Translations under genes and position numbers: made by a program | The notes under the pieces: model-generated | Told to the model about the DNA's origin: nothing | What the model saw: only the letters and a program-made list of their open reading frames with translations | Database searches by the model: none | Virus record (IMG/VR): IMGVR_UViG_2859827302_000008 | Length of the DNA: 30,612 nt | Source: a virus | Taxonomy: Duplodnaviria > Heunggongvirae > Uroviricota > Caudoviricetes | Strand: one strand, 5' to 3' | Shown here: piece after piece, positions 664-30,612 of the stretch | Layout: each line of letters opens with the position of its first letter | How positions within the stretch are numbered: the stretch's first letter is position 1

Positions 664-1302
664 GCCAGAGTTTTATTTGAGATCGCAAACAGGGAGGTGG
701 CTTATTACAACATAAGGCAGGAGTTTAATTACTCAACTGAAATTACTGATTTCATGAAAGCGGTATATTTCCTGTATCTCAATCGTCACGGTTACCGTGG
801 TTTATGTCGCTATAACAAGAGCGGGCATTTCAACATTCCCTACGGCAATTATAAAAATCCGTATTTCCCTGAAAAAGAAATTCGCGCATTTGCAGAAAAA
901 GCCCAGCGAGCAACGTTTATCTGCGCCAGCTTTGATGAAACGCTGGCGATGTTGAAGGCGGGGGATGTGGTGTATTGCGATCCACCGTATGACGGTACGT
1001 TTTCCGGCTATCACACTGATGGTTTCACTGAAGATGACCAGTATCACCTAGCATCCGTTCTTGAACATCGGTCATCAGAAGGACATCCGGTCATTGTTTC
1101 TAACAGTGACACATCCCTGATCCGTTCGCTGTATTGCAATTTTACTCACCACTATATCAAGGTAAAACGCAGCATCGGTGTGGCAGCTGGCGAGGGTAAA
1201 TCAGCAACAGAAATCATTGCTGTTTCCGGGCCGCGCTGCTGGGTGGGATTTGATTATTCGCGTGGCGTGGATAGTTCTGCCGTGTACGGAGTACGTGCAT
1301 GA
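664..1302 (+). pseudogene. Dam-family N6-adenine DNA methyltransferase, 5'-truncated
   Basis: Translation aligns with the C-terminal two thirds of Dam (…[16 protein letters not shown]…, catalytic DPPY in VYCDPPYDG). The N-terminal SAM-binding region is absent. The stop overlaps the gene A start (ATGA at 1299..1302). Confidence 0.8.
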
Positions 1303-2823
1303 GCCATGCCGATATGAACAACTGCTGCGGCTTTAACGAGGCTGCCGCAGCGTTCTCATGGAACAGCCCGAAAAAGGCCATTAACCCTTATCTGGACCCG
1401 GCGGAAGTTGCGCCGGTTTCTGCGCTTTCAAACCTGATCACTCTGTACGCTGCCGATAACGAGCAGGAACAGTTGCGCCGCGAGGCACTGAGTGATCAGG
1501 TCTGGGAGCGTTATTTTTTTTATGAATCACGTGATCCTGTCCAGCACGAAATGGAGCAGGATAAGCTCATTAGCCGGGCAAAGCTGGCGCATGAGCAGCA
1601 GCGTTTTAATCCGGATATGGTCATTCTGGCGGACGTCAACGCCCAGCCTTCCCATATCAGCAAGCCGCTGATGCAACGTATTGAATACTTCAGCAGCCTA
1701 GGCAGGCCAAAGGCTTATTCCCGCTATTTACGTGAGACGATTAAGCCATGTCTGGAACGACTGGAGCATGTACGCGACAGCCAGCTATCTGCATCTTTTC
1801 GTTTTATGGCAAGCCATGTAGGGCTGGACGGCCTGCTGATTCTGCCTGAAATGAGTCAGGATCAGGTGAAACGCCTGTCTACCCTTGTCGCTGCGCATAT
1901 GAGCATGTGCCTTGATGCAGCTTGTGGTGATTTGTATGCCACCGATGACGTTAAGCCAGAAGAAATCCGCAAGACATGGGAAAAGGTGGCAGCGGAAACC
2001 CTGCGTCTGGATGTCATCCCGCCTGCGTTTGAGCTACTCCGTCGGAAAAGAAACCGCCGTAAACCCGTGCCCTATGAACTCATTCCGGGTTCGCTGGCGC
2101 GTATGTTGTGCGCCGACTGGTGGTACCGGAAATTATGGAAAATGCGTTGCGAATGGCGGGAAGAGCAGTTGCGTGCTGTCTGCCTGGTCAGCAAAAAAGC
2201 ATCTCCCTATGTCAGCTATGAAGCCGTGATGCATAAACGTGAGCAGCGCCGCAAGTCATTGGAGTTTTTCCGTTCTCATGAACTGGTGAACGAAGAGGGC
2301 GACACGCTGGATATGGAAGACGTGGTAAACGCCAGCAGCAGCAACCCGGCGCACCGCCGCAATGAGATGATGGCCTGTGTTAAAGGTCTGGAGCTTATCG
2401 CGGAAATGCGCGGTGACTGCGCCGTTTTCTACACCATTACCTGTCCGTCACGTTTCCATTCCACGCTCAATAACGGCAGACCAAACCCAACCTGGACAAA
2501 TGCGACGGTAAGACAAAGCAGCGATTATCTGGTCGGCATGTTTGCTGCATTTCGTAAGGCGATGCACAAAGCCGGGTTGCGCTGGTATGGCGTGCGGGTG
2601 GCTGAGCCGCATCATGACGGTACAGTTCACTGGCACCTGTTGTGTTTTATGCGCAAAAAAGACCGCCGCGCCATTACTGCATTGTTGCGTAAGTTTGCCA
2701 TCCGTGAAGACCGCGAGGAACTGGGTAATAACACTGGTCCACGCTTTAAATATGAGCTGATAAACCCGCGCAAAGGAACGCCGACAAGCTACATCGCGAA
2801 ATACATCAGTAAGAACATTGACG
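1299..2823 (+). pseudogene. A: P2-type replication initiation gene A, 5' part, interrupted by IS66-family element
   Basis: Translation carries rolling-circle initiator motifs (…[10 protein letters not shown]…, …[13 protein letters not shown]…, …[12 protein letters not shown]). The frame runs into the IS terminus at 2824. Confidence 0.85.
2816..2823. repeat. Target-site duplication CATTGACG, left copy
   Basis: Identical 8-mer immediately flanks both ends of the IS66-family element (2816..2823 and 5265..5272). Confidence 0.8.
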
Positions 2824-2915
2824 GTAAGCGTACAGCCTGAACCGTCTGGTCAGAATCTGACGAATTAGACAAAGTGGTGTCCACCAAATAAGTAGTGGGA
2901 ACCAAAGTGTCAGAT

Positions 2916-3296
2916 ATGCAGAAAAATGTGAATCCCGGCAGGCGAAAAGGCTGCCCTAATTATCCTCCCGAATTTAAACAGCAGCTCGTTGCTGCCTCCT
3001 GTGAACCCGGGATATCCATCTCAAAACTTGCTCTTGAAAATGGCATTAACGCCAATCTGTTGTTCAAATGGCGACAACAATGGCGCGAGGGAAAGCTGCT
3101 ATTACCTTCTTCAGAGAGCCCCCAGCTACTTCCTGTGACTCTCGATGCAGCTGCCGAACAGCCAGAATCGCTCGCAGAGGATCCGGAAACCCTCAGTATC
3201 AGCTGTGAGGTAACGTTCCGGCACGGGACGCTCCGCTTCAATGGCAATGTCAGCGAAAAGCTCCTGACTCTGCTGATACAGGAACTGAAGCGATGA
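2916..3296 (+). CDS. tnpA: IS66-family accessory protein TnpA
   Basis: First ORF inside the IS; start taken as ATG 2916 (ORF track uses GTG 2895). Stop overlaps the tnpB start (ATGA). Confidence 0.65.
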   Translation: MQKNVNPGRRKGCPNYPPEFKQQLVAASCEPGISISKLALENGINANLLFKWRQQWREGKLLLPSSESPQLLPVTLDAAAEQPESLAEDPETLSISCEVTFRHGTLRFNGNVSEKLLTLLIQELKR

Positions 3297-3640
3297 TCCC
3301 GTTACCTTCCGGGACCAAAATTTGGCTGGTTGCCGGTATCACCGATATGAGAAATGGCTTCAACGGCCTGGCGGCAAAGGTGCAGACGACGCTGAAAGAC
3401 GATCCGATGTCAGGTCACGTTTTTATCTTCCGTGGGCGTTATGGCAGTCAGGTAAAGCTCCTCTGGTCTACCGGCGATGGACTGTGTCTGCTGACCAAAC
3501 GGCTGGAGCGCGGCCGCTTCGCCTGGCCGTCAGCCCGGGATGGCAAAGTGTTCCTCACACCGGCACAGCTGGCGATGCTCCTTGAAGGTATCGACTGGCG
3601 GCAGCCTAAAAGACTGCTTACGTCCCTGACTATGTTGTAA
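3293..3640 (+). CDS. tnpB: IS66-family Orf2 (TnpB)
   Basis: 115-aa ORF in the conserved middle position of IS66 elements, translationally coupled to tnpA. Confidence 0.7.
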   Translation: MIPLPSGTKIWLVAGITDMRNGFNGLAAKVQTTLKDDPMSGHVFIFRGRYGSQVKLLWSTGDGLCLLTKRLERGRFAWPSARDGKVFLTPAQLAMLLEGIDWRQPKRLLTSLTML

Positions 3641-3688
3641 GCCTCTTTATCCTGGTCGACGCTGAATGAGCCTGGTAATATACCCGGT

Positions 3689-5227
3689 ATGAGCAGCTCA
3701 CTTCCTGACGATATCAATGCACTGAAACGTCTCCTTGCCGAACAGGAGGCGCTGAACCGTGCCCTGCTGGAAAAGCTGAACGAGCGTGAACGCGAAATAG
3801 ACCATCTGCAGGCACAGCTGGATAAGCTGCGCCGGATGAACTTCGGCAGCCGCTCCGAAAAAGTCTCCCGTCGTATCGCACAGATGGAAGCTGACCTGAA
3901 GGCACTTCAGAAAGAAAGTGATACCCTTACCGGTCGGGTTGACGACCCGGCCGTGCAGCGCCCGCTGCGTCAAACCCGCACCCGCAAACCGTTCCCCGAA
4001 TCACTCCCCCGCGATGAAAAACGGCTGCTGCCGGCAGCGTCATGCTGCCCGGAATGTGGAGGCTCACTGAGCTATCCGGGTGAGGATGCCGCCGAACAGC
4101 TGGAGTTGATGCGCAGCGTCTTCCGGGTTATCCGGACTGTACGTGAAAAGCATGCCTGTACTCAGTGCGATGCCATCGTGCAGGCCCCCGCGCCTTCACG
4201 GCCCATCGAGCGGGGTATCGCAGGACCGGGGCTGCTGGCCCGCGTGCTGATCTCAAAGTATGCAGAGCACACCCCGCTGTACCGCCAGTCTGAAATGTAC
4301 GGCCGCCAGGGCGTGGAGCTGAGTCGTTCACTGCTGTCGGGCTGGGTGGATGCATGCTGCCGGCTACTGTCACCGCTGGAAGAAGCGCTTCAGGATTATG
4401 TGCTGACTGACGGTAAGCTCCATGCTGATGACACGCCTGTCCCGGTGCTGTTGCCAGGCAATAAGAAAACGAAGACCGGGCGGTTATGGACCTACGTTCG
4501 TGACGACCGTAACGCCGGGTCAACGCTGGCGCCGGCGGTGTGGTTCGCTTACAGCCCGGACAGAAAAGGCATCCATCCGCAGACCCATCTTGCGGGGTTC
4601 AGTGGTGTACTGCAGGCGGATGCATACGCCGGGTTCAACGAGCTGTACCGGGATGGCCGGATAACGGAAGCCGCCTGTTGGGCTCACGCCCGCCGTAAAA
4701 TCCACGATGTGCACGTTCGCACCCCGTCAGCCCTGACGGAGGAAGCGCTGAAACGGATCGGCGAACTGTACGCCATCGAGGCAGAGATAAGGGGAATGAC
4801 GGCGGAGCAGCGCCTTGCCGAACGTCAGTTGAAAACGAAACCGCTGCTGAAATCCCTGGAAAGCTGGCTGCGTGAAAAGATGAAAACCCTGTCGCGACAC
4901 TCAGAACTGGCGAAAGCGTTCGCATACGCCCTGAACCAGTGGCCGGCGCTGACGTACTATGCAGATGATGGCTGGGCTGAGGCGGACAATAACATCGCTG
5001 AAAATGCGTTGCGGATGGTCAGTCTGGGCCGCAAAAACTACCTGTTCTTCGGTTCGGATCATGGAGGAGAGCGGGGAGCGCTGCTGTACAGCCTGATCGG
5101 GACGTGCAAACTGAACGGAGTGGAGCCAGAAAGCTACCTCCGCTATGTCCTTGACGTCATAGCCGACTGGCCGATAAACCGGGTCGGCGAACTGCTCCCC
5201 TGGCGCGTAGCACTGCCGACTGAATAA
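3689..5227 (+). CDS. tnpC: IS66-family transposase TnpC
   Basis: 512-aa ORF with N-terminal coiled-coil, CxxC…CxxC zinc-finger-like motif (CCPECGG…CTQCD) and DDE-type core, ending just inside the right inverted repeat. Confidence 0.85.
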
Positions 5228-5264
5228 CACATCCCCGTCAATACGGTTCTTGCTGCACGCTTAC

Positions 5265-5272
5265 CATTGACG
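5265..5272. repeat. Target-site duplication CATTGACG, right copy
   Basis: Exact copy of 2816..2823 immediately after the IS right end. Confidence 0.8.
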
Positions 5273-6162
5273 GGCGTGGTCTGGCTGGCGAGATCAGCAA
5301 GGAAACGGGTAAATCCCTGCGTGATAACGCTGAATACGTTAATCCCTGGGCGTCTCTGCATCGTGTTCAGCAATTCCGCTTCTTTGGTATTCCAGGGCGT
5401 CAGGCTTACCGTGAACTGCGGTTGTTGGCTGGTCAGGCGGCAAGGCAGCAGGGTGACAAAAAAGCAGGTGCGCCGGTACTGGATAACCCGCGCCTTGATG
5501 CCATCCTGGCTGCTGCTGATGCTGGCTGTTTTGCCACCTACATTATGAGGCAGGGCGGCGTGCTGGTTCCTCGCAAATATCACTTGATCAGAACCGCTTA
5601 TGAAATCAATGAAGAGCCGACCGCCTATGGCGATCACGGTATTCGTATTTATGGCATCTGGTCACCCATTGCAGAAGGCAAGATCTGCACTCATGCAGTG
5701 AAGTGGAAAATGGTTCGTAAAGCCGTTGACGTTCAGGAGGCGGCAGCCGACCAGGGCGCTTGCGCCCCTTGGACTCGTGGCAATAACTGTCCCCTTGCTG
5801 AAAATTTGAACCAACAGGAGAAAGATAAATCAGCTGATGGGAACCCCAGAACGGACATTACCAGCATGGATGACAAGGAGTTGCACGATTACCTGCACAG
5901 TATGAGCAAAAAAGAGCGCCGGGAACTGGCAGCAAGGTTACGCCTGGTGAAACCGAAACGGCGTAAAGACTACAAACAGCGAATTACAGACCATCAGCGA
6001 CTGCAGCTCGTGTATGAGCTGAAGTCCAGAGGATTTGATGGCAGCGAGAAAGAGGTCGATTTACTCCTTCGCGGAGGCAGTATTCCGTCAGGAGCAGGCC
6101 TGCGTATCTTCTATCGGAACCAGCGTTTGCAGGAAGATGATCAGTGGCGGAACCTATATTAA
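5273..6162 (+). pseudogene. A: P2-type replication initiation gene A, 3' part
   Basis: Joining 2823 to 5273 restores a continuous frame (…KNIDG|[25 protein letters not shown]…); downstream ORF to 6162 continues gpA-like sequence. Confidence 0.8.
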
Positions 6163-7039: not shown

Positions 7040-8689
7040 ATGTTAGTCAAGAAAAATAAAAATTATAGTTTATATTTTTTAATTACAAATAATCAACAGA
7101 TATCTGATTCTGGTAATTATATAAAAATAGTCCCATCAAGAAGCGATTGGAATGATTTTGGATATTTGAGTAGAGTCGAAATATCTATTTTTAATAAAAA
7201 AGAGTGTAAGGATATAATTTCACTGAATGGTTATATTGGTTTTTTGAATTCAGAGGAGGAACGAAATGGAAAAGCAGAACTGATAAGGCGAGTGAAAAAA
7301 AAGGAAGAATCTAATTTAAAGGATGAGGGGTTTAATGATTATTTTGTCATGCTTCAGGATATGAATAATTATCGAAGACTAGTAAGATTTTTTGGGGTGA
7401 ATGAATCCAAATATATATTAAATTTCATTAATGATGTTGTTTCTAAGAAAAGTGACGCTAGTGCAGAGAATTTGAGGAAAAAAGCAATCTCTTCTGATAT
7501 CTTTAATAAATCTTTCATTAGAGAGTCTGAGTCGTATTTTACTTTCAAAAATGCAGGAACAGTTCTTTCCGGTATTCAATATGAGGAGTTGGGTAATTTA
7601 TCACAGCACATCAAGATTAGCTATTCGAATAAAGTTAATGAAGAAGATGTATCTTATGTTTTTAATTTTGATCACGAGCATGATTTACCAAAAAGAATTT
7701 CCATAATTATAGGCGAGAATGGTGTAGGAAAAAGCCAAACGCTTAGAGAAATCGCATTGGCTGCGATTAAAGGAAAGGATAATTTGGTGGCTGTAGTTGA
7801 TTCTAACGGTGTGAGCATTGAAGAACGAATTCAAATTAGTAGGCTCATTGCTTTTTCTCCAACAAATGAAAGTAAGTGTTCATTTCCAACCGATAAAAGA
7901 ATAAAATCATTGATATGGTACAAAAGATTGACTTTAAATCGTGAATCAAAATCCAAATTAAACTTGAATGATTTAATAGTGCAACTAGCGAGGAGTAACG
8001 ACGCTATCGGCTATAATCAAAGGTGGAATATATTTGTTGATGCACTGAGTGTTCTAAATAGTAACAACGATTTAGTAATCAAATGTGGCGGTGAAAATTC
8101 ACCATTTGTTAAATTAAATGAGCTTAATTCTCGAGGCGAAGAATCTAGACTATCATTATATTCTGAAATTATTCTCTCTGGCGAGCCTTTGAGGCTTATT
8201 GAAAATAAATGTTACCCTTTGAGTAGTGGGGAAATATCGTTTATTAAGTTTTGTGTACAAGTCTGTTTGTATATTGAGAATGGGACTCTTCTATTAATAG
8301 ATGAGCCAGAAACACATCTCCATCCTTCATTTATTAATAAATTTATGGCATTGCTTGATAATTTATTAGAAAAGACAGGCTCTTCAGCTATCATAGCAAC
8401 GCATTCGGTTTATCTTGTTCGGGAGGTTTTTAAGGAGCAAGTGACAATACTCAGAAGACGAGATGATGGGGTAATTGTTAGCGAAAAACCGAGATTGAGT
8501 ACTTTTGGGGCGAATATAGGAAATATCTCATATTTTGTTTTCGGTGAGAGTGAACCAACTCAAATTTTAAATAAAGTAAAAAACAATATAATTGCAAAGA
8601 ATATGTCTTGGGATGATGTTGAATCTAAATATAGCGAGGACTTATCACTTAATGTATTAACTGCGTTGAGAAATGAAATGGGCAATTGA
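7040..8689 (+). CDS. ABC-type (AAA_15/AAA_21-like) ATPase with unassigned ~220-aa N-terminal domain; candidate defence ATPase (PtuA-like)
   Basis: 549-aa ORF with GAGAGGG ribosome-binding site. Walker A GENGVGKS (aa ~225-232), signature-like LSSGE (~395), Walker B LLLIDEPE (~417-424), H-loop ATHS (~453). Gene is strongly AT-rich. Confidence 0.85.
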   Translation: MLVKKNKNYSLYFLITNNQQISDSGNYIKIVPSRSDWNDFGYLSRVEISIFNKKECKDIISLNGYIGFLNSEEERNGKAELIRRVKKKEESNLKDEGFNDYFVMLQDMNNYRRLVRFFGVNESKYILNFINDVVSKKSDASAENLRKKAISSDIFNKSFIRESESYFTFKNAGTVLSGIQYEELGNLSQHIKISYSNKVNEEDVSYVFNFDHEHDLPKRISIIIGENGVGKSQTLREIALAAIKGKDNLVAVVDSNGVSIEERIQISRLIAFSPTNESKCSFPTDKRIKSLIWYKRLTLNRESKSKLNLNDLIVQLARSNDAIGYNQRWNIFVDALSVLNSNNDLVIKCGGENSPFVKLNELNSRGEESRLSLYSEIILSGEPLRLIENKCYPLSSGEISFIKFCVQVCLYIENGTLLLIDEPETHLHPSFINKFMALLDNLLEKTGSSAIIATHSVYLVREVFKEQVTILRRRDDGVIVSEKPRLSTFGANIGNISYFVFGESEPTQILNKVKNNIIAKNMSWDDVESKYSEDLSLNVLTALRNEMGN

Positions 8690-9554
8690 AATGAATAAAT
8701 TAAAAAGACCTGTTTTTAAAGATTATTCTGCATTTAAAAAACTATCTGCAAATAAGAGATTAAAACATCATTCTGTTCTGAATGGACAGGATACATTTAT
8801 ACTTAATGCATATAGATCGTACATAAAGAATAAAGGGTATCTTAATGTCAATTCTTGTGGCGTATTGAGTAACAATATTGCTGAAGCTTTGAGATATTAT
8901 TATAACAATCCCGCAAAGTGTTTATCTATAATTGATGATATAAGAGCAGCTAATTCTAACTCTCTATGTCCAATGTGTGGTTCAATGCATAGCGGGACTT
9001 TGGATCATGTTTTACCCAAGGAAAACTATCCAGAATTTTCTTTATTCACTAAGAATTTGGTTCCTGCTTGCAAATGTAATACTTTCAAAAGTACTACTAT
9101 AGCTAATTCTGCAGGCCATCGGATGCTGCATCCATATTTTGATAATATATTAAAACAAAGATTAATATGTGCTAATTTTTCTAAATTAGGGCGAACACCT
9201 ACAATTGATGTAAAAATCATAATTGACCCAATGTCACCAGAATATAACAATGTTAAGTATCATCTTGATAATGTTGTTATCAAGAATAATATTAAGGGGT
9301 ATTTGTCTGAACAATGGGAGTCGTTTTACTTATATCCTGAGCTTGTTATTAGAGGACTGAATAAGAGTCTTTCTACTTATAGCGATGTATATGAGTTGTT
9401 GACTCGCGAGTTGTTGCTGTTGGATGAAAAACATAAAGGTAAAAATAATTGGAATTCGGTTTTTGTAGCTGGGTTAATTCGACCTGATGTGATTAGGTGG
9501 ATACTCTGTGAATTACATTTAGGTAACAGAAGTCCAGACGGTCGTCTCATATGA
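8673..9554 (+). CDS. HNH-family nuclease (His-Me finger with Cys4 zinc site); candidate defence effector (PtuB-like)
   Basis: 293-aa ORF overlapping the ATPase stop by 17 nt (alternative start ATG 8691 directly after the stop). Motif CPMCGS…GTLDHVLPKEN…NLVPACKCN…H matches the CxxC…DH…N…CxCN HNH layout. Confidence 0.8.
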   Translation: MKWAIEMNKLKRPVFKDYSAFKKLSANKRLKHHSVLNGQDTFILNAYRSYIKNKGYLNVNSCGVLSNNIAEALRYYYNNPAKCLSIIDDIRAANSNSLCPMCGSMHSGTLDHVLPKENYPEFSLFTKNLVPACKCNTFKSTTIANSAGHRMLHPYFDNILKQRLICANFSKLGRTPTIDVKIIIDPMSPEYNNVKYHLDNVVIKNNIKGYLSEQWESFYLYPELVIRGLNKSLSTYSDVYELLTRELLLLDEKHKGKNNWNSVFVAGLIRPDVIRWILCELHLGNRSPDGRLI

Positions 9555-9661: not shown

Positions 9662-10696
9662 TTAAGTAGCTAGTTTATAACTATCAAATTTAACAATGTT
9701 CTCACTTACCAATTTATTTATTTCCATCATTCTTTTTTGTAACGGTATTAACTCGTTACGTACAAACACCAGGCTCGCCTTCTCCACATCCCCAAACCCC
9801 CCGACATTATTAGGCATAATCCCCATCATTTGCGGTGGCACACGATGCGCCGCCATCATGTCATCCCGGCTCACGTTCTTGATGTTCAGAAACTCATCCT
9901 TCGCCGCGACTTCTGACAACGGGATGATCTGAAGCCCGTCCTTTTTGCCGTTAGGCGAGTACATAAACAGATTGCGGAAGTTACCTGGTCCTTTGGCGCT
10001 TTTCATCGCATTGCGGAGGTTGTTCACATCCTCCTGGTTTTGCGCGGCATCGGTCATGTACATGATGAAGCCTGCATGACTGCCGTTAATGTAATACTAT
10101 CGGCGGAACAGCGTGGCGGACTCGTTGAGCAGGGCTGACGGAATGGCAGAAAGGTAACCTGGCAGGCCGTAGATCTCTTGGTTGATGTCCGGTTCCATCA
10201 GATGAAAGATGCTTCCTTTCGTGAACTGATACGGCTGCGTGGTCATGCCGTATTGCACAAACCAGTAGGTATCCAGGTCTAATCCGCGTCGGGTGTATTT
10301 TGCCAGAGCAGGCTCAAGAGCGATGACCTCTCCGAACCGGTTTGTGCGTTTCTCCAGGTAAGCGTTACCAAATACCAGATAATCCTGCACAAAACGTGAA
10401 AAAGCCTGCTGGCTGAGCAGCGGGTGAGGGATGTAGGTACTGATCAGAATGTTGCATTTCACCGCAATTGGTGAACTGTGATGCACGGCGGCGCGGAAGG
10501 TGCGCGCCAGTCCGTCAAAACTCACTGGCGGCTCATACCAGCGATCTGTCTGTACGCATTCCACATAGTCCAGTAGTTCACGGCGGTCCAGAACCGGAAC
10601 GGGATCGCCGAAGCTGAATGCTTCGGCTGAAGTCTGGTTTTTATGCTGGGTCTGTTTCGTCGCCGCAGCGCGGTTCTTCTTACTCTTTCCCATCAA
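9662..10696 (-). pseudogene. Q: P2-type portal protein gene Q with one in-frame amber codon (TAG at 10097..10099)
   Basis: Two minus-strand ORFs (10097..10696 and 9662..10063) share one frame and are separated only by the TAG plus 11 sense codons. Combined length (~344 codons) fits a P2-type portal. Confidence 0.85.
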
Positions 10697-12459
10697 AAAA
10701 TCTCCACAATATTGCTGGTATTGGCGGACTCGCCCTGCAGCGGTTCGTTAAACAGTGCGTGCATTGTTGCCCAGGCCAGATCGGCATGGCTGGCTTCTTC
10801 GCTGCGGCTGGCTTCATAGGTCGGGCGGTTGCCGCTGGCGGTGGTGGCGCGACGGATTGCCATGAATGACTGCGCAATGTCGGTGTGCCCGGCGTCAAAC
10901 TCAAGACGGCGGTGGCTGATAATGTCGTAGGCCTTGAGTACCAGGGCGTTTTTAACGTTGGGGTTGTAGACAAACTCCCGGACGGCAGGAAAAAACGCTT
11001 TCACGTTCTCGTAAACCCCGTGACCAACGCCGGTTGAGTCGATGCCGATATAGGTCACGTTGTACTGTTCAGTCAGTTTTTTGATGGCGTAAGCCTGGGC
11101 GCGAAAGTCCATTCCGCGCCACTGGTGACGCTCAAGAATGCGGAACTTACCGCCTGGCACGGCTGGCGGTGCCACCACCACGCATCCGGCGCTGTCGCCG
11201 TTCTGCGTACCTTTTGCCGGGTCATAACCGATCCACACTTCGCGCCAGCCAAACGGGCGCAGGGCCAGTGCATGAAAGTCGGTCCAGACTTCCCAGCTGT
11301 CCACCATGCACGCCTGCAATTCGCTGAGCGGGAACACGGACGCGAGATCGTCCACGAACTCGCACATCAGCAGGTTCTGGTATTCGTCAGGGCTGTACTC
11401 CATGCGCAACTGGTCAAGGTCGAACAGGTTACAGGCGCCGCGCACCGCATCTTCCACGGTGACTATCTGGCGGTATTGCCCGTCTGCGCACAGCAGGCCG
11501 GGGGCCAGATTGCTGTGGGACAGGTCGATGTCCACCTTGTCAGCTTTGTTGCGCCCACGGTTGAACAGCGCACCGGACCAGAACGGATAAGCACTGTGGG
11601 TCAGACTGGATGGTGTGGAAAAATAGGTCTGCCGCCATTTCTTGTGAATAGCCATACCAGAAGCCACTTTGCGTAGCTCCTGAAATTTCGGTATCCAGAA
11701 ATATTCATCCAGATACAGGTTACCGTGATAACTCTGGGCAGTGCGGGCATTGGTGCCGAGGAAATACAGTGTGGCCCCGTTGGGAAGCACCATCGGATCG
11801 CCTTTCAGCTCCACCTCCACTTCTTTGGCAAAGTCGATGATGTACTGTTTGAAGACGTGGGCCTGTGCCTTACTGGCAGAAAGGAAAATCTGGTTACGTC
11901 CGGTAAGCAGGGCGTCAATCAGGGCTTCACGGGCAAAATAGAAGGTCGCGCCGATCTGGCGTGACTTCAGCAGGTTGCGGATGCGGTTGGTTTTTCCGGC
12001 TTCCCACCAGTGGCGCTGGTAGTTGAACATGGAGGAATGGAAATTTTTTTCCAGCTTCTCAATCTGGTCATCGGTGAAAACATTCTTTTCAGGCTGACGG
12101 CGTGGGCCTTTGTTGCGGTTGGCGACGTTAGGGTTTAAGTCGGCTTCGTTGCCGCCATTGTTAAACTTGCCGATCCGCGCGTGGCGCTCAGACTGGCGCG
12201 CCAGCAGGTCAATATCTTTGAAATCTTTCCCTTCTTTGTGCTCCTTCATGATGAGCTGGCAGTAGCGTGCGGCGGTGGTGAGCTGCATCTGATCCAGAGG
12301 CCCATAGTCACCCCACTTGTCGCGTTTTTTTCAGCTGTAAACGGTTGCAACTTTCTCGCCCAGCATTTCAGCAATGCGGGCTACGCGGTATCCCTGAAAG
12401 TACAGCAGCATGGCCTGCCGACGGGGATCGAGATCTGCGGGTGTCAGTGTGGTGTTCAT
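10693..12459 (-). pseudogene. P: P2-type terminase large (ATPase) subunit gene P with in-frame opal codon (TGA at 12331..12333)
   Basis: ATG at 12459 opens MNTTLTPADLDPRRQAMLLYFQGYRVARIAEMLGEKVATVYS, then TGA, then the same frame continues into the 531-aa ORF 10693..12288. Confidence 0.85.
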
Positions 12460-13451: not shown

Positions 13452-14510
13452 ATGAAGAAGAATACCCGCTTTGCTTTTAACGCTTACCTGCAGCAACTGG
13501 CGCGTCTGAACGGTGTGGCAGTTGAAGAACTGTCCAGCAAGTTCACCGTAGAGCCGTCCGTGCAGCAGACGCTGGAAGACCAGATCCAGCAGTCCGCCGC
13601 TTTCCTGACTCTGATTAACGTCACGCCAGTGACTGAGCAGTCCGGTCAGCTGCTGGGGTTGGGAGTTGGCAGCACCATTGCCGGAACCACTGATACCACT
13701 GCGAAAGAGCGTGAACCTGTCGATCCGACGCTGATGGTCGATGTGGAATATAAATGCGAGCAGACCAACTTTGACACGGTGCTGACCTACGCGAAGCTGG
13801 ACCTGTGGGCGAAGTTTCAGGATTTTCAGGTGCGTATCCGTGACGCCATCGTGAAACGTCAGGCACTGGACCGCATCATGATCGGCTTTAATGGCGTGAA
13901 GCGTGCGAAAACCTCCAACCGTAGCGAAAACCCGCTGCTGCAGGATGTGAATAAAGGCTGGCTGCAGAAAATCCGTGAGGATGCACCGGATCACGTCATG
14001 GGCAGCACCACCACGGGCGGTGAAACCACACCGGGCGCAGTGAAAGTCGGGAAAGGTGGCGAATATGCCAACCTGGACGCCGTGGTGATGGATGCCGTCA
14101 ATGAGCTTATCGACGTGGTCTACCAGGACGATGACGATCTGGTGGTGATTTGCGGTCGTGAACTGCTGTCTGACAAGTATTTCCCGCTGGTCAACAAAGA
14201 GCAGGAAAACAGTGAAAAACTGGCTGCCGATATGATCATCAGTCAGAAACGCATGGGTGGCCTGCAGGCCGTGCGTGCGCCGTTCTTCCCGCCGAATGCG
14301 CTGCTGATCACCCGTCTGGATAACCTGTCCATCTACTGGCAGGAAGACACCCGCCGCCGTTCAGTTATCGACAACCCGAAACGTGACCGGATTGAAAACT
14401 TTGAATCCGTTAACGAAGCCTATGTGGTTGAGGACTACCGCTGCGCCGCACTGGTGGAAAACATCCAGATTAGTGATTTCAGCGCCGCCGCAGCCGAAAC
14501 CGGAGCGTAA
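13452..14510 (+). CDS. N: Major capsid protein (gpN-like)
   Basis: 352-aa ORF immediately after O; size and synteny match P2 gpN. Confidence 0.9.
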   Translation: MKKNTRFAFNAYLQQLARLNGVAVEELSSKFTVEPSVQQTLEDQIQQSAAFLTLINVTPVTEQSGQLLGLGVGSTIAGTTDTTAKEREPVDPTLMVDVEYKCEQTNFDTVLTYAKLDLWAKFQDFQVRIRDAIVKRQALDRIMIGFNGVKRAKTSNRSENPLLQDVNKGWLQKIREDAPDHVMGSTTTGGETTPGAVKVGKGGEYANLDAVVMDAVNELIDVVYQDDDDLVVICGRELLSDKYFPLVNKEQENSEKLAADMIISQKRMGGLQAVRAPFFPPNALLITRLDNLSIYWQEDTRRRSVIDNPKRDRIENFESVNEAYVVEDYRCAALVENIQISDFSAAAAETGA

Positions 14511-17952: not shown

Positions 17953-18346
17953 ATTGCAGAAGGTGGACGACTGGCTGAGTGCATTATTGGCGAATCTGGA
18001 GCCAGCCGCAAGAAGCCGCATGATGCGCCAGCTGGCGCAGGAACTGCGCCGGACACAGCAGCAGAACATCAGGATGCAGCGCAATCCAGATGGCAGCAGT
18101 TATGAGCCGCGCAGGGTAACAGCACGCAGCAAAAAGGGGCGCATCAAACGTCAGATGTTTACAAAGCTGCGCACCACAAAATACCTGAAAACTGCAGCCA
18201 GCGCCGATTCTGCCAGCGTACAGTTTGAAGGTAGGGTGCAGCGCATTGCCCGTATTCACCATTACGGCTTGAGTGATCGCGTCAGTCGAAAAGGTATTTA
18301 TACCATCTATGCGAAAAGGCAGTTATTAGGTTTTAATGTCCGGTAA
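17945..18346 (+). pseudogene. S: Tail completion protein gene S, 3' end replaced by the IS1 terminus
   Basis: GTG-initiated ORF. The last codons and the stop (TAA 18344..18346) lie at the junction with and inside the IS1 inverted repeat that starts at 18342. Confidence 0.7.
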
Positions 18347-18396
18347 TGCTGCCAACTTACTGATTTAGTGTATGATGGTGATTTTAAGGTGCTTGC

Positions 18397-18672
18397 GTGG
18401 CTTCCATTTCCATCAGATGTCCTTCCTGCTCCGCTATTGAAGGCGTGGTGCGTAACGGCAAAAGCACTGCCGGACATCAGCGCTATCTCTGCTCTCATTG
18501 CCGTAAAACATGGCAATTACAGTTCACTTACACCGCCTCTCAGCCCGGTACGCACCAGAAAATCATTGATATGGCCATGAATGGCGTCGGATGTCGCGCC
18601 AGTGCACGCATTATGGGCGTTGGCCTCAACACGGTTTTACGTCACTTAAAAAACTCAGGCCGCAGTCGGTAA
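18397..18672 (+). CDS. insA: IS1 InsA
   Basis: 91-aa [26 protein letters not shown]… with zinc-finger and HTH regions, characteristic of IS1 InsA. Confidence 0.9.
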
Positions 18673-19094
18673 CCTCGCGCATACAACCGGGCAGTGATGT
18701 GATTGTCTGCGCTGAAATGGACGAACAGTGGGGCTACGTCGGTGCTAAATCACGTCAGCGCTGGCTGTTTTACGCGTATGACAGGATACGGAGGACGGTT
18801 GTGGCGCACGTCTTCGGTGAACGCACTCTGGCCACACTGGAGCGTCTTCTGAGCCTGCTGTCGGCCTTTGAGGTCGTGGTATGGATGACGGATGGCTGGC
18901 CGCTGTATGAATCACGCCTGAAGGGAAAGCTGCACGTTATCAGCAAGCGTTACACTCAGCGCATTGAGCGACATAATCTGAATCTGAGACAACATCTGGC
19001 AAGGCTGGGACGGAAGTCACTGTCGTTCTCAAAATCGGTGGAGCTGCATGACAAGGTCATCGGGCATTATCTGAACATAAAACACTATCAGTAA
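18591..19094 (+). CDS. insB: IS1 InsB reading frame (expressed as InsAB' transposase by -1 frameshift)
   Basis: 167-aa ORF overlapping insA in the -1 frame, ending 15 bp before the right inverted repeat. Confidence 0.85.
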
Positions 19095-19109
19095 GTTGGC
19101 AGCATTACC

Positions 19110-19624
19110 ATGCAGCCCTCACAATATAGTTAAAAGCGACATTTCGTGGGCGTGTTTCATTCGCACCTGCAGGTTTAGTCGTTGCCGCAACAACACCACC
19201 CTCTGTAATAGCCGGGTTGGGAATTGGGTAATTATCGAAGTCAATGGCCGGAGACAGGGGCGTGATTTGTTTTAAAATCGTGGTGCCTGTAAAACTTTCC
19301 AGAGTCTGGTCGTTAGTTCGTGAAGTCCAGATTCCCCAATAGTGGTTATGACTGACAATCGCACCGTCCTGAAGCGTTAATAATCCCCTTCCGTTATCCA
19401 CTCCACGTCCGTCATCCCAGCCACGAATAAACTCACCGCGTAAATCAGGCAATTTATTTGTCGGGTAAGCCTTTGCCAGTTCCGGGTATTCTTCAGCAGA
19501 AAAAGCCGCACCATTGCATTTCAGCCAGCCTGTCGGCGGAGTGGCTGAAGGCCACGGAACAGGCACACCAACAGGTAATGCAGAGCCTTCTCCCAAACCA
19601 ACGTTTAAGAAAATGCAGAGATAA
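19110..19624 (-). pseudogene. Orphan tail-fibre variable C-terminal segment (Sv'-type, inverted orientation), lacking its constant 5' partner
   Basis: Minus-strand translation …PVPWPSATPPTGWLKCNGAAFSAEEYPELAKAYP…ETRPRNVAFNYIVRAAW is typical of invertible-segment tail-fibre tips. The 5' end begins within the gix-like site and the 3' end abuts IS1, which supplies the stop codon. Confidence 0.65.
19599..19624. promoter_or_regulatory. gix/pix-like DNA-invertase crossover site
   Basis: TTCTCCCAAACCAACGTTTAAGAAAA versus recalled gix consensus TTATCCAAAACCTCGGTTTACAGGAA. It lies inside the tail-fibre reading frame, next to the invertase gene. Confidence 0.5.
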
Positions 19625-19668
19625 TGGCTAACTGGCATCATCTCCGGTTTTTATTCAGGGGATTGATC

Positions 19669-20377: not shown

Positions 20378-21550
20378 ATGGCTCAGGATTACCACCACGG
20401 GGTGCGCGTTGTTGAAGTCAACGAAGGCACCCGATCCATTACCACGGTGAGCACCGCCATCGTGGGTATGGTCTGCACGGGCGATGATGCCGATGCAAAA
20501 ATGTTTCCTCTTAATAAACCTGTGCTGATCACTGATGTGCTGACCGCCAGCGGTAAAGCGGGTGAGTCTGGCACGCTGGCCCGTTCGCTGGATGCCATCG
20601 CTGACCAGGCAAAACCCGTGACCGTTGTTGTGCGTGTGCCGCAGGGTGAAACGGAAGAAGAAACCACAACCAATATCATTGGCGCAGTGACCGCCGAGGG
20701 TAAAAAAACAGGTATGAAAGCCCTGTTATCTGCCCAGTCACAGCTCGGCGTTAAACCGCGCATTCTCGGCGTGCCAGGTCACGACACGAAGGCGGTAGCT
20801 ACTGAGTTGCTGAGCGTGGCGCAAAGCCTGCGTGGATTTGCTTACCTGTCAGCGTATGGTTGCAAGACGGTGCAGGAAGCAATCACTTACCGTGAAAACT
20901 TCAGTCAGCGTGAAGGAATGCTGATCTGGCCCGACTTTACTGGCTGGGACACGGTGCTGAATGCCGAAGCAACGGCTTATGCCACCGCCCGTGCGCTCGG
21001 TCTGCGCGCTAAAATTGATGAGCAGACCGGATGGCACAAAAGCCTGTCCAACGTGGGCGTGAACGGTGTCACCGGAATTTCTGCTGATGTGTTCTGGGAT
21101 CTGCAGAACCCGGCAACCGATGCAGGTCTGCTTAACCAGAACGATATCACCACGCTTATCCGCAAAGACGGTTTCCGCTTCTGGGGTTCCCGCTGTCTGA
21201 GCGATGATCCGCTCTTTGCCTTCGAAAACTACACCCGCACGGCGCAGGTGCTGATGGACACGATGGCAGAAGCGCACATGTGGGCGGTGGACAAACCGCT
21301 GAACCCGTCGCTGGCCCGCGACATTATCGAAGGTATCCGCGCCAAAATGCGTAGCCTGGTCAGTCAGGGCTATCTCATTGGTGGTGATTGCTGGCTGGAC
21401 GAGTCGGTGAACGATAAAGACACGCTGAAAGCCGGGAAACTCACCATCGATTACGACTACACGCCAGTGCCGCCACTTGAAAACCTGATGCTGCGTCAGC
21501 GCATCACCGATCAGTACCTGGTGAATTTCTCCAGCCAGGTCAGCGCGTAA
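20378..21550 (+). CDS. FI: Tail sheath protein (gpFI-like)
   Basis: 390-aa ORF with AGGAGG ribosome-binding site; size and position match P2 FI. Confidence 0.9.
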
Positions 21551-29714: not shown

Positions 29715-30092
29715 GTGAAACATAAACAACGTTGGGCGGGGGCAATCTGCTGTTTTGTCCTCTTCATTGTGGTGTGCCTTTTTCTGGCGACGTACATGAA
29801 AGGCGCTTTTCGGGCTGCCGGGCATCCTGAAATCGGCTTGCTGTTTTTCATTCTTCCTGGAGCAGTTGCCAGTTTCTTTTCACAGCGTAGAGAAGTCCTG
29901 AAACCTCTATTTGGCGCAATGCTGGCGGCACCCTGTTCAATGCTCATTATGCGGCTGTTTTTTTCACCGACGCGCTCATTCTGGCAAGAGCTGGCATGGT
30001 TACTAAGCGCGGTGTTCTGGTGTGCGCTGGGGGCACTGTGTTTCTTATTTATCAGTAGTTTGTTTAAACCACAGCACAGAAAAAATCAGTAA
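29715..30092 (+). CDS. ybjM: Inner membrane protein YbjM
   Basis: 125-aa hydrophobic ORF, GTG start with AGGAGG ribosome-binding site, in the ybjL-ybjM-grxA arrangement known from E. coli K-12. Confidence 0.8.
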   Translation: MKHKQRWAGAICCFVLFIVVCLFLATYMKGAFRAAGHPEIGLLFFILPGAVASFFSQRREVLKPLFGAMLAAPCSMLIMRLFFSPTRSFWQELAWLLSAVFWCALGALCFLFISSLFKPQHRKNQ

Positions 30093-30121: not shown

Positions 30122-30303
30122 TCAGGCGTCCAGATTTTCTTTCACCCATGCAGCAAAATCGGTATAGCCGCCGATATGTTGCTGATCGACAAAAATCTGC
30201 GGCACGGTTTCTACGGGTTTACCTGCCTTTTGTGGTAGATCTTCTTTAGTGATCCCTTCCGCACGAATATCTACATACTGATACTGAAAATCATCGCGTT
30301 CAT
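30122..30303 (-). pseudogene. grxA: Glutaredoxin 1 gene grxA, 3' fragment (codons ~27 to 85) interrupted by IS1
   Basis: Minus-strand translation ERDDFQYQYVDIRAEGITKEDLPQKAGKPVETVPQIFVDQQHIGGYTDFAAWVKENLDA-stop; the frame runs straight into the IS1 terminus at 30304. This fragment lacks the CPYC active site. Confidence 0.8.
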
Positions 30304-30612
30304 GGTAATGACTCCAACTTACTGATAGTGTTTTATGTTCAGATAATGCCCGATGACCTTGTCATGCAGCTCCACCGATTTTGAGAACGACAGTGACTTC
30401 CGTCCCAGCCTTGCCAGATGTTGTCTCAGATTCAGATTATGTCGCTCAATGCGCTGAGTGTAACGCTTGCTGATAACGTGCAGCTTTCCCTTCAGGCGTG
30501 ATTCATACAGAGGCCAGCCATCCGTCATCCATACCACGACCTCAAAGGCCGACAGCAGGCTCAGAAGACGCTCCAGTGTGGCCAGAGTGCGTTCACCGAA
30601 GACGTGCGCCAC
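30304..30612 (-). mobile_element. IS1, partial (continues beyond window), inverted relative to the first copy
   Basis: Terminus GGTAATGACTCCAACTTACTGAT at 30304 followed by the insB reading frame on the minus strand. Confidence 0.9.
30319..30612 (-). CDS. insB: IS1 InsB, 3' portion (partial at window edge)
   Basis: 97-aa translation identical to the C-terminal part of InsB from the IS1 at 18591..19094. Confidence 0.85.

Follow-up and report, generated by a model that had tools for sequence, protein, structure and literature searches.

Does a replication gene split by an insertion sequence (IS) record one simple transposition, and is anything of the function of the gene left? This question is raised by the Caudoviricetes DNA stretch of 30,612 nucleotides (nt) held as IMG/VR record IMGVR_UViG_2859827302_000008 (the window, meaning this whole stretch), in which an IS66-family element lies inside replication gene A (gpA) of a P2-type prophage, between two copies of the octamer CATTGACG. 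We are highly confident in reading the locus as a single IS66-family transposition into gene A, which was inherited vertically, is unrearranged in this copy, and most likely inactivated the gene. The insertion and its borders are composed as follows.

2816 to 2823, no strand: left-hand target-site duplicate of 8 bp, CATTGACG
2824 to 5264, plus strand: complete IS66-family insertion sequence, ISEc22-like, 2441 bp, 99.7% identical to ISEc22-family copies
2824 to 2845, plus strand: left inverted repeat (IRL), GTAAGCGTACAGCCTGAACCGT, with the GTAAGCG start typical of the IS66 family (PMC11946415)
5243 to 5264, minus strand: right inverted repeat (IRR), recognized by its match to the left one
5265 to 5272, no strand: right-hand target-site duplicate of 8 bp, CATTGACG

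An earlier note on this DNA had described perfect CATTGACG direct repeats as an intact 8-bp duplication, and this description holds to the base: identical octamers are present on the plus strand at 2816-2823 and 5265-5272, abutting both outer ends of the element at 2824-5264. By count alone the octamer is unremarkable, with three occurrences in the window against 1.29 expected (the third is on the minus strand, at 14096); the significance of the duplication comes from the position of the pair at the ends of the element and not from the octamer count. These ends were set independently of the gene A locus, from other copies of the element that have identical terminal bases. The copy in Escherichia coli 503025 is flanked by an 8-bp duplication of its own, AATCAACC, and five more copies in Shigella-type assemblies by the duplications GTTAATAT, GCTGATGC, CTTTGTTT, ACTCATCA, and GCTAATCA. 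Once the ends are fixed, the chance of a match at 8/8 positions is 4^-8, or about 1.5e-5. The termini themselves form an imperfect inverted repeat: GTAAGCGTACAGCCTGAACCGT at one end and GTAAGCGTGCAGCAAGAACCGT at the other, read on the opposite strand, match at 19/22 positions and both begin with GTAAGCGT. A 9-bp duplication, CATTGACGG, is formally possible, since the IS begins with G, but is disfavored by the GTAAGCG terminus and by the 8-bp duplications elsewhere.

The element carries three open reading frames (ORFs), all on the same strand.

2916 to 3296, plus strand: tnpA, 126 amino acids (aa) from the ATG at 2916, matching Pfam HTH_Tnp_1 and NCBIfam IS66 TnpA
3293 to 3640, plus strand: tnpB, 115 aa, matching Pfam TnpB_IS66 (6.8e-38) and NCBIfam IS66_TnpB
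3689 to 5227, plus strand: tnpC, intact, the DDE transposase of 512 aa, matching Pfam DDE_Tnp_IS66 (7.2e-107) and NCBIfam transpos_IS66 (1.7e-139)

In the IS66 family, tnpA and tnpB stand upstream of tnpC in a three-ORF organization (PMC12888890), and inverted repeats of 20-30 bp starting with GTAAGCG are accompanied by 8-bp direct repeats (PMC11946415, citing Ross et al., 2021). The element described here has a DDE TnpC, tnpA together with tnpB, GTAAGCG inverted repeats, and an 8-bp duplication. Its attribution to this family, already made in the earlier note, is borne out by the layout, by the termini, and by matches far over the curated cut-offs: 357 bits against 23.1 for DDE_Tnp_IS66, 465 against 180 for transpos_IS66, 129 against 26.6 for TnpB_IS66, and 97.4 against 74 for IS66_ISRel24_TnpA. 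TnpC additionally has the Pfam LZ, zinc-finger (zf), and C-terminal domains, and a CwAH-rR signature at residue 330. The ATG of tnpB overlaps the stop codon of tnpA (ATGA), and tnpC starts 48 nt past tnpB. An alternative start for tnpA, the GTG at 2895, would give 133 aa; the length of 126 aa equals that of the PGAP-annotated tnpA in a comparison locus (L002), from which it differs at 2 aa.

Among 5426 complete E. coli genomes searched, the best matches to the element run gap-free over 2441/2441 nt at 99.7% identity; PGAP annotates a tnpA and a tnpB in these copies and labels them "IS66-like element ISEc22 family transposase". The likeness to these copies includes identical terminal bases, ORFs of 126, 115, and 512 aa, and 8-bp duplications. 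A base-by-base comparison with the E. coli 503025 copy gave 7 substitutions, no insertions or deletions (indels), and 5 amino-acid changes, all three ORFs being full-length. With its ORFs all intact, the copy in gene A looks potentially active. No second copy of the element is present within the 30,612-nt window.

Outside the element, the two parts of the interrupted gene can be delimited exactly.

1299 to 2823, plus strand: 5' portion of P2-type replication gene A, made up of codons 1-508 and one more nt, assigned by the Pfam Phage_GPA match of the restored protein
5273 to 6162, plus strand: 3' portion of gene A, beginning with the remainder of codon 509 and running through codon 804 to the stop codon, an open frame with no internal stops

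When 2824-5272 is removed and 1299-2823 is joined to 5273-6162, a single ORF of 804 codons results, whereas an excision that keeps both repeat copies produces a premature stop in gene A. The restored protein matches Pfam Phage_GPA over residues 188-510 (1.1e-127, 426 bits against a cut-off of 31.4). Two intact relatives agree with it in length: the "replication endonuclease" WP_000017478.1 of E. coli SF-468, from an apparently intact P2-like prophage, which is likewise 804 aa long and differs at 12 amino acids, and gp11 of the Salmonella phage RE-2010 (Felsduovirus), annotated as "nicking at origin of replication". The placement of the insertion inside replication gene A and the exact restorability of the frame, both claimed in the earlier note, are thus confirmed by the Phage_GPA match, by the length of the intact relatives, and by the mapping of both insert flanks to one 9-nt stretch of the intact SF-468 gene (positions 20393-20401 of comparison locus L001), exactly as a target duplication predicts.

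The site is also found empty. A query of 800 nt was reconstructed with 400 nt from each side and one repeat copy. It was covered at 100%, in one piece and with 99.8% identity, in 14 E. coli genomes, and at 80% or more in 1218 E. coli genomes, with the replication endonuclease gene uninterrupted among the matches listed; 51 phage records also covered it at 80% or more. The closest intact relatives are of the Felsduovirus type, with about 95% nt identity for RE-2010 and 99.8% around the site for the SF-468 prophage. A functional member of the P2-type A family would have a full-length, uninterrupted coding sequence; here it is split after codon 508, and the gene is a pseudogene of this family and not a functional member. 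The upstream ORF continues into the IS as far as a stop codon at 2838-2840, which gives a product of 513 aa.

The insertion is shared by a group of related strains. The window is identical to CP026828.1 (GCA_002950015.1) across 8840 comparable nt. An exact match to the 513-aa fusion product, in which gene A codons 1-508 are followed by 5 residues encoded by the IS, is present in that sequence as well as in five independent read-set assemblies (ERR6536636, DRR015993, SRR8746512, SRR36349715, and SRR8281091), the contigs of which break off shortly after entering the IS, as repeat boundaries lead one to expect. The right junction, IS|CATTGACG-gpA3', was recovered in ten NCBI assemblies from different strains, and in 6/10 of these the gpA5' junction is present too, the element being flanked by CATTGACG at either end. 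Because the junctions recur in independent assemblies, the insertion is genuine. The exact 40-nt junction gave no match in the GTDB representative genomes. One of the sequences sharing the right junction, CP026832, is S. dysenteriae 14 ATCC 49346 (PMC10132075), and the names under which its sources record the exact TnpC sequence are those of an ISEc22-family transposase of Shigella or S. dysenteriae; the probable assignment of the window to Shigella dysenteriae rests on these two elements. The shared junctions are most simply explained by one ancestral event that would have been fixed in the S. dysenteriae-type lineage.

Nothing speaks against the insertion itself; the points that follow bear on its name, its distribution, and the functional part of the reading. 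The element measures 2441 bp, whereas the length given for ISEc22 in ISfinder is 2454 bp (PMC5001619). Because of this discrepancy the name is kept at "ISEc22-like"; the 2441-bp form may be an isoform of ISEc22 or a differently named ISfinder entry, and for ISSd1, considered as an alternative name, the literature mentions give neither family nor length. With regard to distribution, the filled junction was not found in the 5426 complete E. coli genomes, where coverage of a 400-nt query for it nowhere exceeded 55%, and the distribution described above rests on Shigella-type assemblies that were found by exact-protein look-up. As for function, nothing of the Pfam Phage_GPA domain is missing from the 513-aa product, in which the HUH motif and the two catalytic tyrosines are also preserved, and this fragment may retain residual nicking activity.

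The last point leads to the alternative that survives best, namely that the insertion is real and the gene is not inactivated: the 513-aa fragment would be an active nickase, and failure of replication would come from other lesions only. The catalytic motifs can be located by alignment with the A protein of phage P2. In the restored protein, the HUH motif (HWH) is at residues 449-451, corresponding to 404-406 of P2 A, and the YxxxY tyrosines at 498 and 502 correspond to P2 residues 450 and 454. Y450 and Y454 are said by Odegrip and Haggård-Ljungquist to be the catalytic tyrosines of P2 A. The 12-residue tyrosine motif is identical in P2 A (450-461) and in the restored protein (498-509), with the HUH motif about 50 residues upstream; the 8-bp target encodes the I-D-G of this conserved active-site motif, and the insertion lies six codons past the second tyrosine. 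The two proteins share the Phage_GPA domain, the HUH motif, and the two-tyrosine motif, and a putative homologue of the ori nick lies in the 3' third of the gene; they differ in overall sequence (31% identity) and in length (761 aa in P2 against 804 aa here), and the gene is split here.

5762 to 5790, plus strand: putative homologue of the P2 ori nick region, by alignment only, inside the 3' fragment of gene A

In the P2 record the 'nick site at ori' is annotated at nt 29892, in codon 620 of A, and this position aligns to codon ~675 here, with ~22/30 nt identical (our own count on the alignment), including CAATAACTGT. The putative homologue is situated 0.5 kb downstream of the IS and is now 2.45 kb further from the catalytic coding part of the gene.

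An active fragment would be consistent with the almost complete coverage of Phage_GPA residues 188-510 by the 513-aa product, and with the ori homologue that is still present downstream. However, the fragment lacks the C-terminal 296 aa, which are present at full length in intact relatives, a viable phage included, and are under purifying selection there: over these 296 codons, the ratio of nonsynonymous to synonymous substitution rates (dN/dS) between SF-468 and RE-2010 is 0.083. Judging from this ratio, the C-terminal region is evidently needed in functional phages. Moreover, the early promoter region for gene A is no longer upstream, as IS911 truncates the dam gene and the left flank is putA-rutR. 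P2 A acts in cis (cis-preference). Because of this preference and of the purifying selection on the C-terminal third, we consider that the initiator function of A has very probably been lost, and that a gene still active through its fragment is improbable. The earlier note had stated that the insertion on its own would abolish prophage replication. The loss of the C-terminal part, the dN/dS of 0.083, and the cis biology of P2 A argue strongly in that direction; in view of the retained domain and tyrosines, the loss of replication is a strong inference.

A related proposal is that the insertion was no neutral hit and would have been retained for "grounding" a prophage with useful cargo of the PDC-M01 type, or that the 513-aa fragment persists as an active nickase on the ori homologue, or both; we regard it as very unlikely.

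Another possibility is that the present arrangement is secondary, the two halves of gene A having come from different prophages or IS copies that recombined within the IS, with a fortuitous match of the octamers. Two observations would fit such an origin. Identity to the SF-468 prophage is unequal on the two sides (99.4% on the left, 97.3% on the right), and recombination between IS copies does occur in this lineage, as indicated by swapped octamers at five comparison loci (L009, L011, L013, L014, and L021). Four of these can be set out with their flanking octamers.

L014, GCA_900618175.1: left octamer CATTGACG, right octamer ACTTAACT; gpA5' on the left, ybgS-aroG-gpmA on the right
L011, GCA_900618175.1: left octamer ACTTAACT, right octamer GATTTTGC; zitB on the left
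L013, GCA_900618175.1: left octamer GATTTTGC, right octamer TCTGAGAC
L021, CP026834.1: left octamer TCTGAGAC, right octamer CATTGACG; gpA3' on the right

Such a chain of exchanged half-duplications is, on sequence grounds, the signature of homologous recombination between IS copies, and it records successive IS-IS recombinations by which the same prophage gene A was split across the chromosome in related strains. Recombination of this kind is well described for Shigella (PMC8072062). In the window, unlike at L014 and L021, both CATTGACG halves have stayed together, which agrees with the view of the earlier note that a simple insertion was not followed by rearrangement. In addition, the drop in identity to SF-468 starts near nt 2070 of the gene, about 545 nt downstream of the IS and not at the IS; over the 400 nt to each side, the reconstructed site matches intact genes at 99.8% identity; and identical octamers with a perfectly restored frame would need two independent insertions at one base pair. 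A secondary origin is thereby left very improbable.

The weakest alternative, an assembly artefact with a repeated IS copy put into gene A by mistake, might be suspected in so IS-rich and misassembly-prone a genome (four other IS copies or fragments lie in the 30-kb window), but it is scarcely credible given that the left junction was recovered in the five short-read assemblies, the right one in the 10 assemblies of different strains, and that a misplaced IS would create no target duplication.

Two further features of these comparisons concern the gene and its resident element. The mosaic boundary relative to SF-468 (window ~5762-5817), where near-identity gives way to clustered mismatches from gene nt ~2070, starts just 3' of the P2 ori nick homologue, which may be a coincidence or may reflect a recombination breakpoint near ori. 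In some related assemblies (L022, L023, L025, and L027), the gpA-resident IS has one or two gaps that split tnpC into 126 + 372, 69 + 447, or 186 + 310 aa, and at L025 another IS is inserted in its left part; the split tnpC frames could be due to real decay or to indel errors in long reads.

Under the reading of a single inactivating insertion, the history of the locus would be as follows. An ISEc22-like element of 2441 bp, with its three genes intact, would have transposed once into gene A of a prophage of the P2/Felsduovirus type that is integrated beside ybjL, duplicating the 8-bp target CATTGACG. The event would have occurred in an ancestor of the Shigella dysenteriae-type lineage and been followed by vertical inheritance. 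The copy in the window would never have recombined with other IS copies, so that both halves of the duplication stay in place, and gene A, split after codon 508 of 804, would most likely have lost its capacity for rolling-circle initiation. The structure of the insertion, its family, the restorable frame, the empty sites, and the sharing among related strains are shown; the lost function of A and the timing in one ancestor are inferred.

The gene A insertion is one of at least five lesions in this prophage. At the left edge of the window (1-~665), an IS911 (IS3-family, PGAP label) truncates the prophage dam methylase gene (697-1302), the product of which is without the first ~87 profile positions. 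In the chromosome (L003 1-5400), the other flank of this IS911 is putA-rutR, and not the prophage early region or rcdA; the int, cI, and early operon genes have therefore been deleted or moved by IS-mediated rearrangement. Relative to the intact SF-468 prophage, nonsense codons are present in the portal (K199*) and large terminase (W43*) genes (10097-10099 and 12331-12333, minus strand); the split portal (133 aa + 198 aa) is common to most related assemblies. A complete IS1 of 768 bp at 18342-19109 replaces ~7.6 kb of baseplate and tail-fibre genes, corresponding to the V, W, J, I, H, and G equivalents (L001 32667-40284), and a tail-fibre 'Collar' fragment is found on the minus strand at 19105-19641. 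A further IS1 lies at the right edge of the window (~30200-30612), beside ybjM; the alignment of E. coli genomes across this interval falls into two parts and contains additional sequence, which is suggestive of a deletion, associated with IS1, of neighboring core genes on the grxA side.

Between a dinI-like gene and the portal gene, the prophage also carries a cargo of two overlapping genes, at 7040-8689 and 8673-9554. The first encodes a 549-aa AAA_21/AAA_15 ATPase that matches PADLOC PDC-M01A (3e-55), and the second a protein of 293 aa that has no Pfam matches and matches PADLOC PDC-M01B (1e-33). The phage genes around this PDC-M01A/B candidate defense pair are decaying, while both of its members have remained intact in this genome and in most of its relatives. 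Because of the several other lesions, the prophage is a fixed remnant, and no present-day phenotypic effect is peculiar to the gene A insertion.

The IS family, the phage target gene, and the combination of IS expansion and prophage decay in Shigella are already known, and IS66 is specific to some Shigella lineages (PMC8072062). IS1, IS3/IS911, and IS66 are brought together here in one 30-kb stretch with pseudogenization, IS-bounded deletions, and IS-IS recombination; compared with the IS-driven decay described for Shigella, there is no difference in kind, and the locus is one documented instance of it. It provides a clean textbook example of how a prophage gene is turned into a pseudogene by an IS in a Shigella-type genome with expanded IS content, which matters little alone. 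The gpA::IS junction is a lineage-specific character common to several assemblies of the S. dysenteriae series, with modest value as a marker. In addition, the state of the octamers, intact or swapped, tells whether an IS copy joined later IS-IS recombination, and could be used to order rearrangements among strains.

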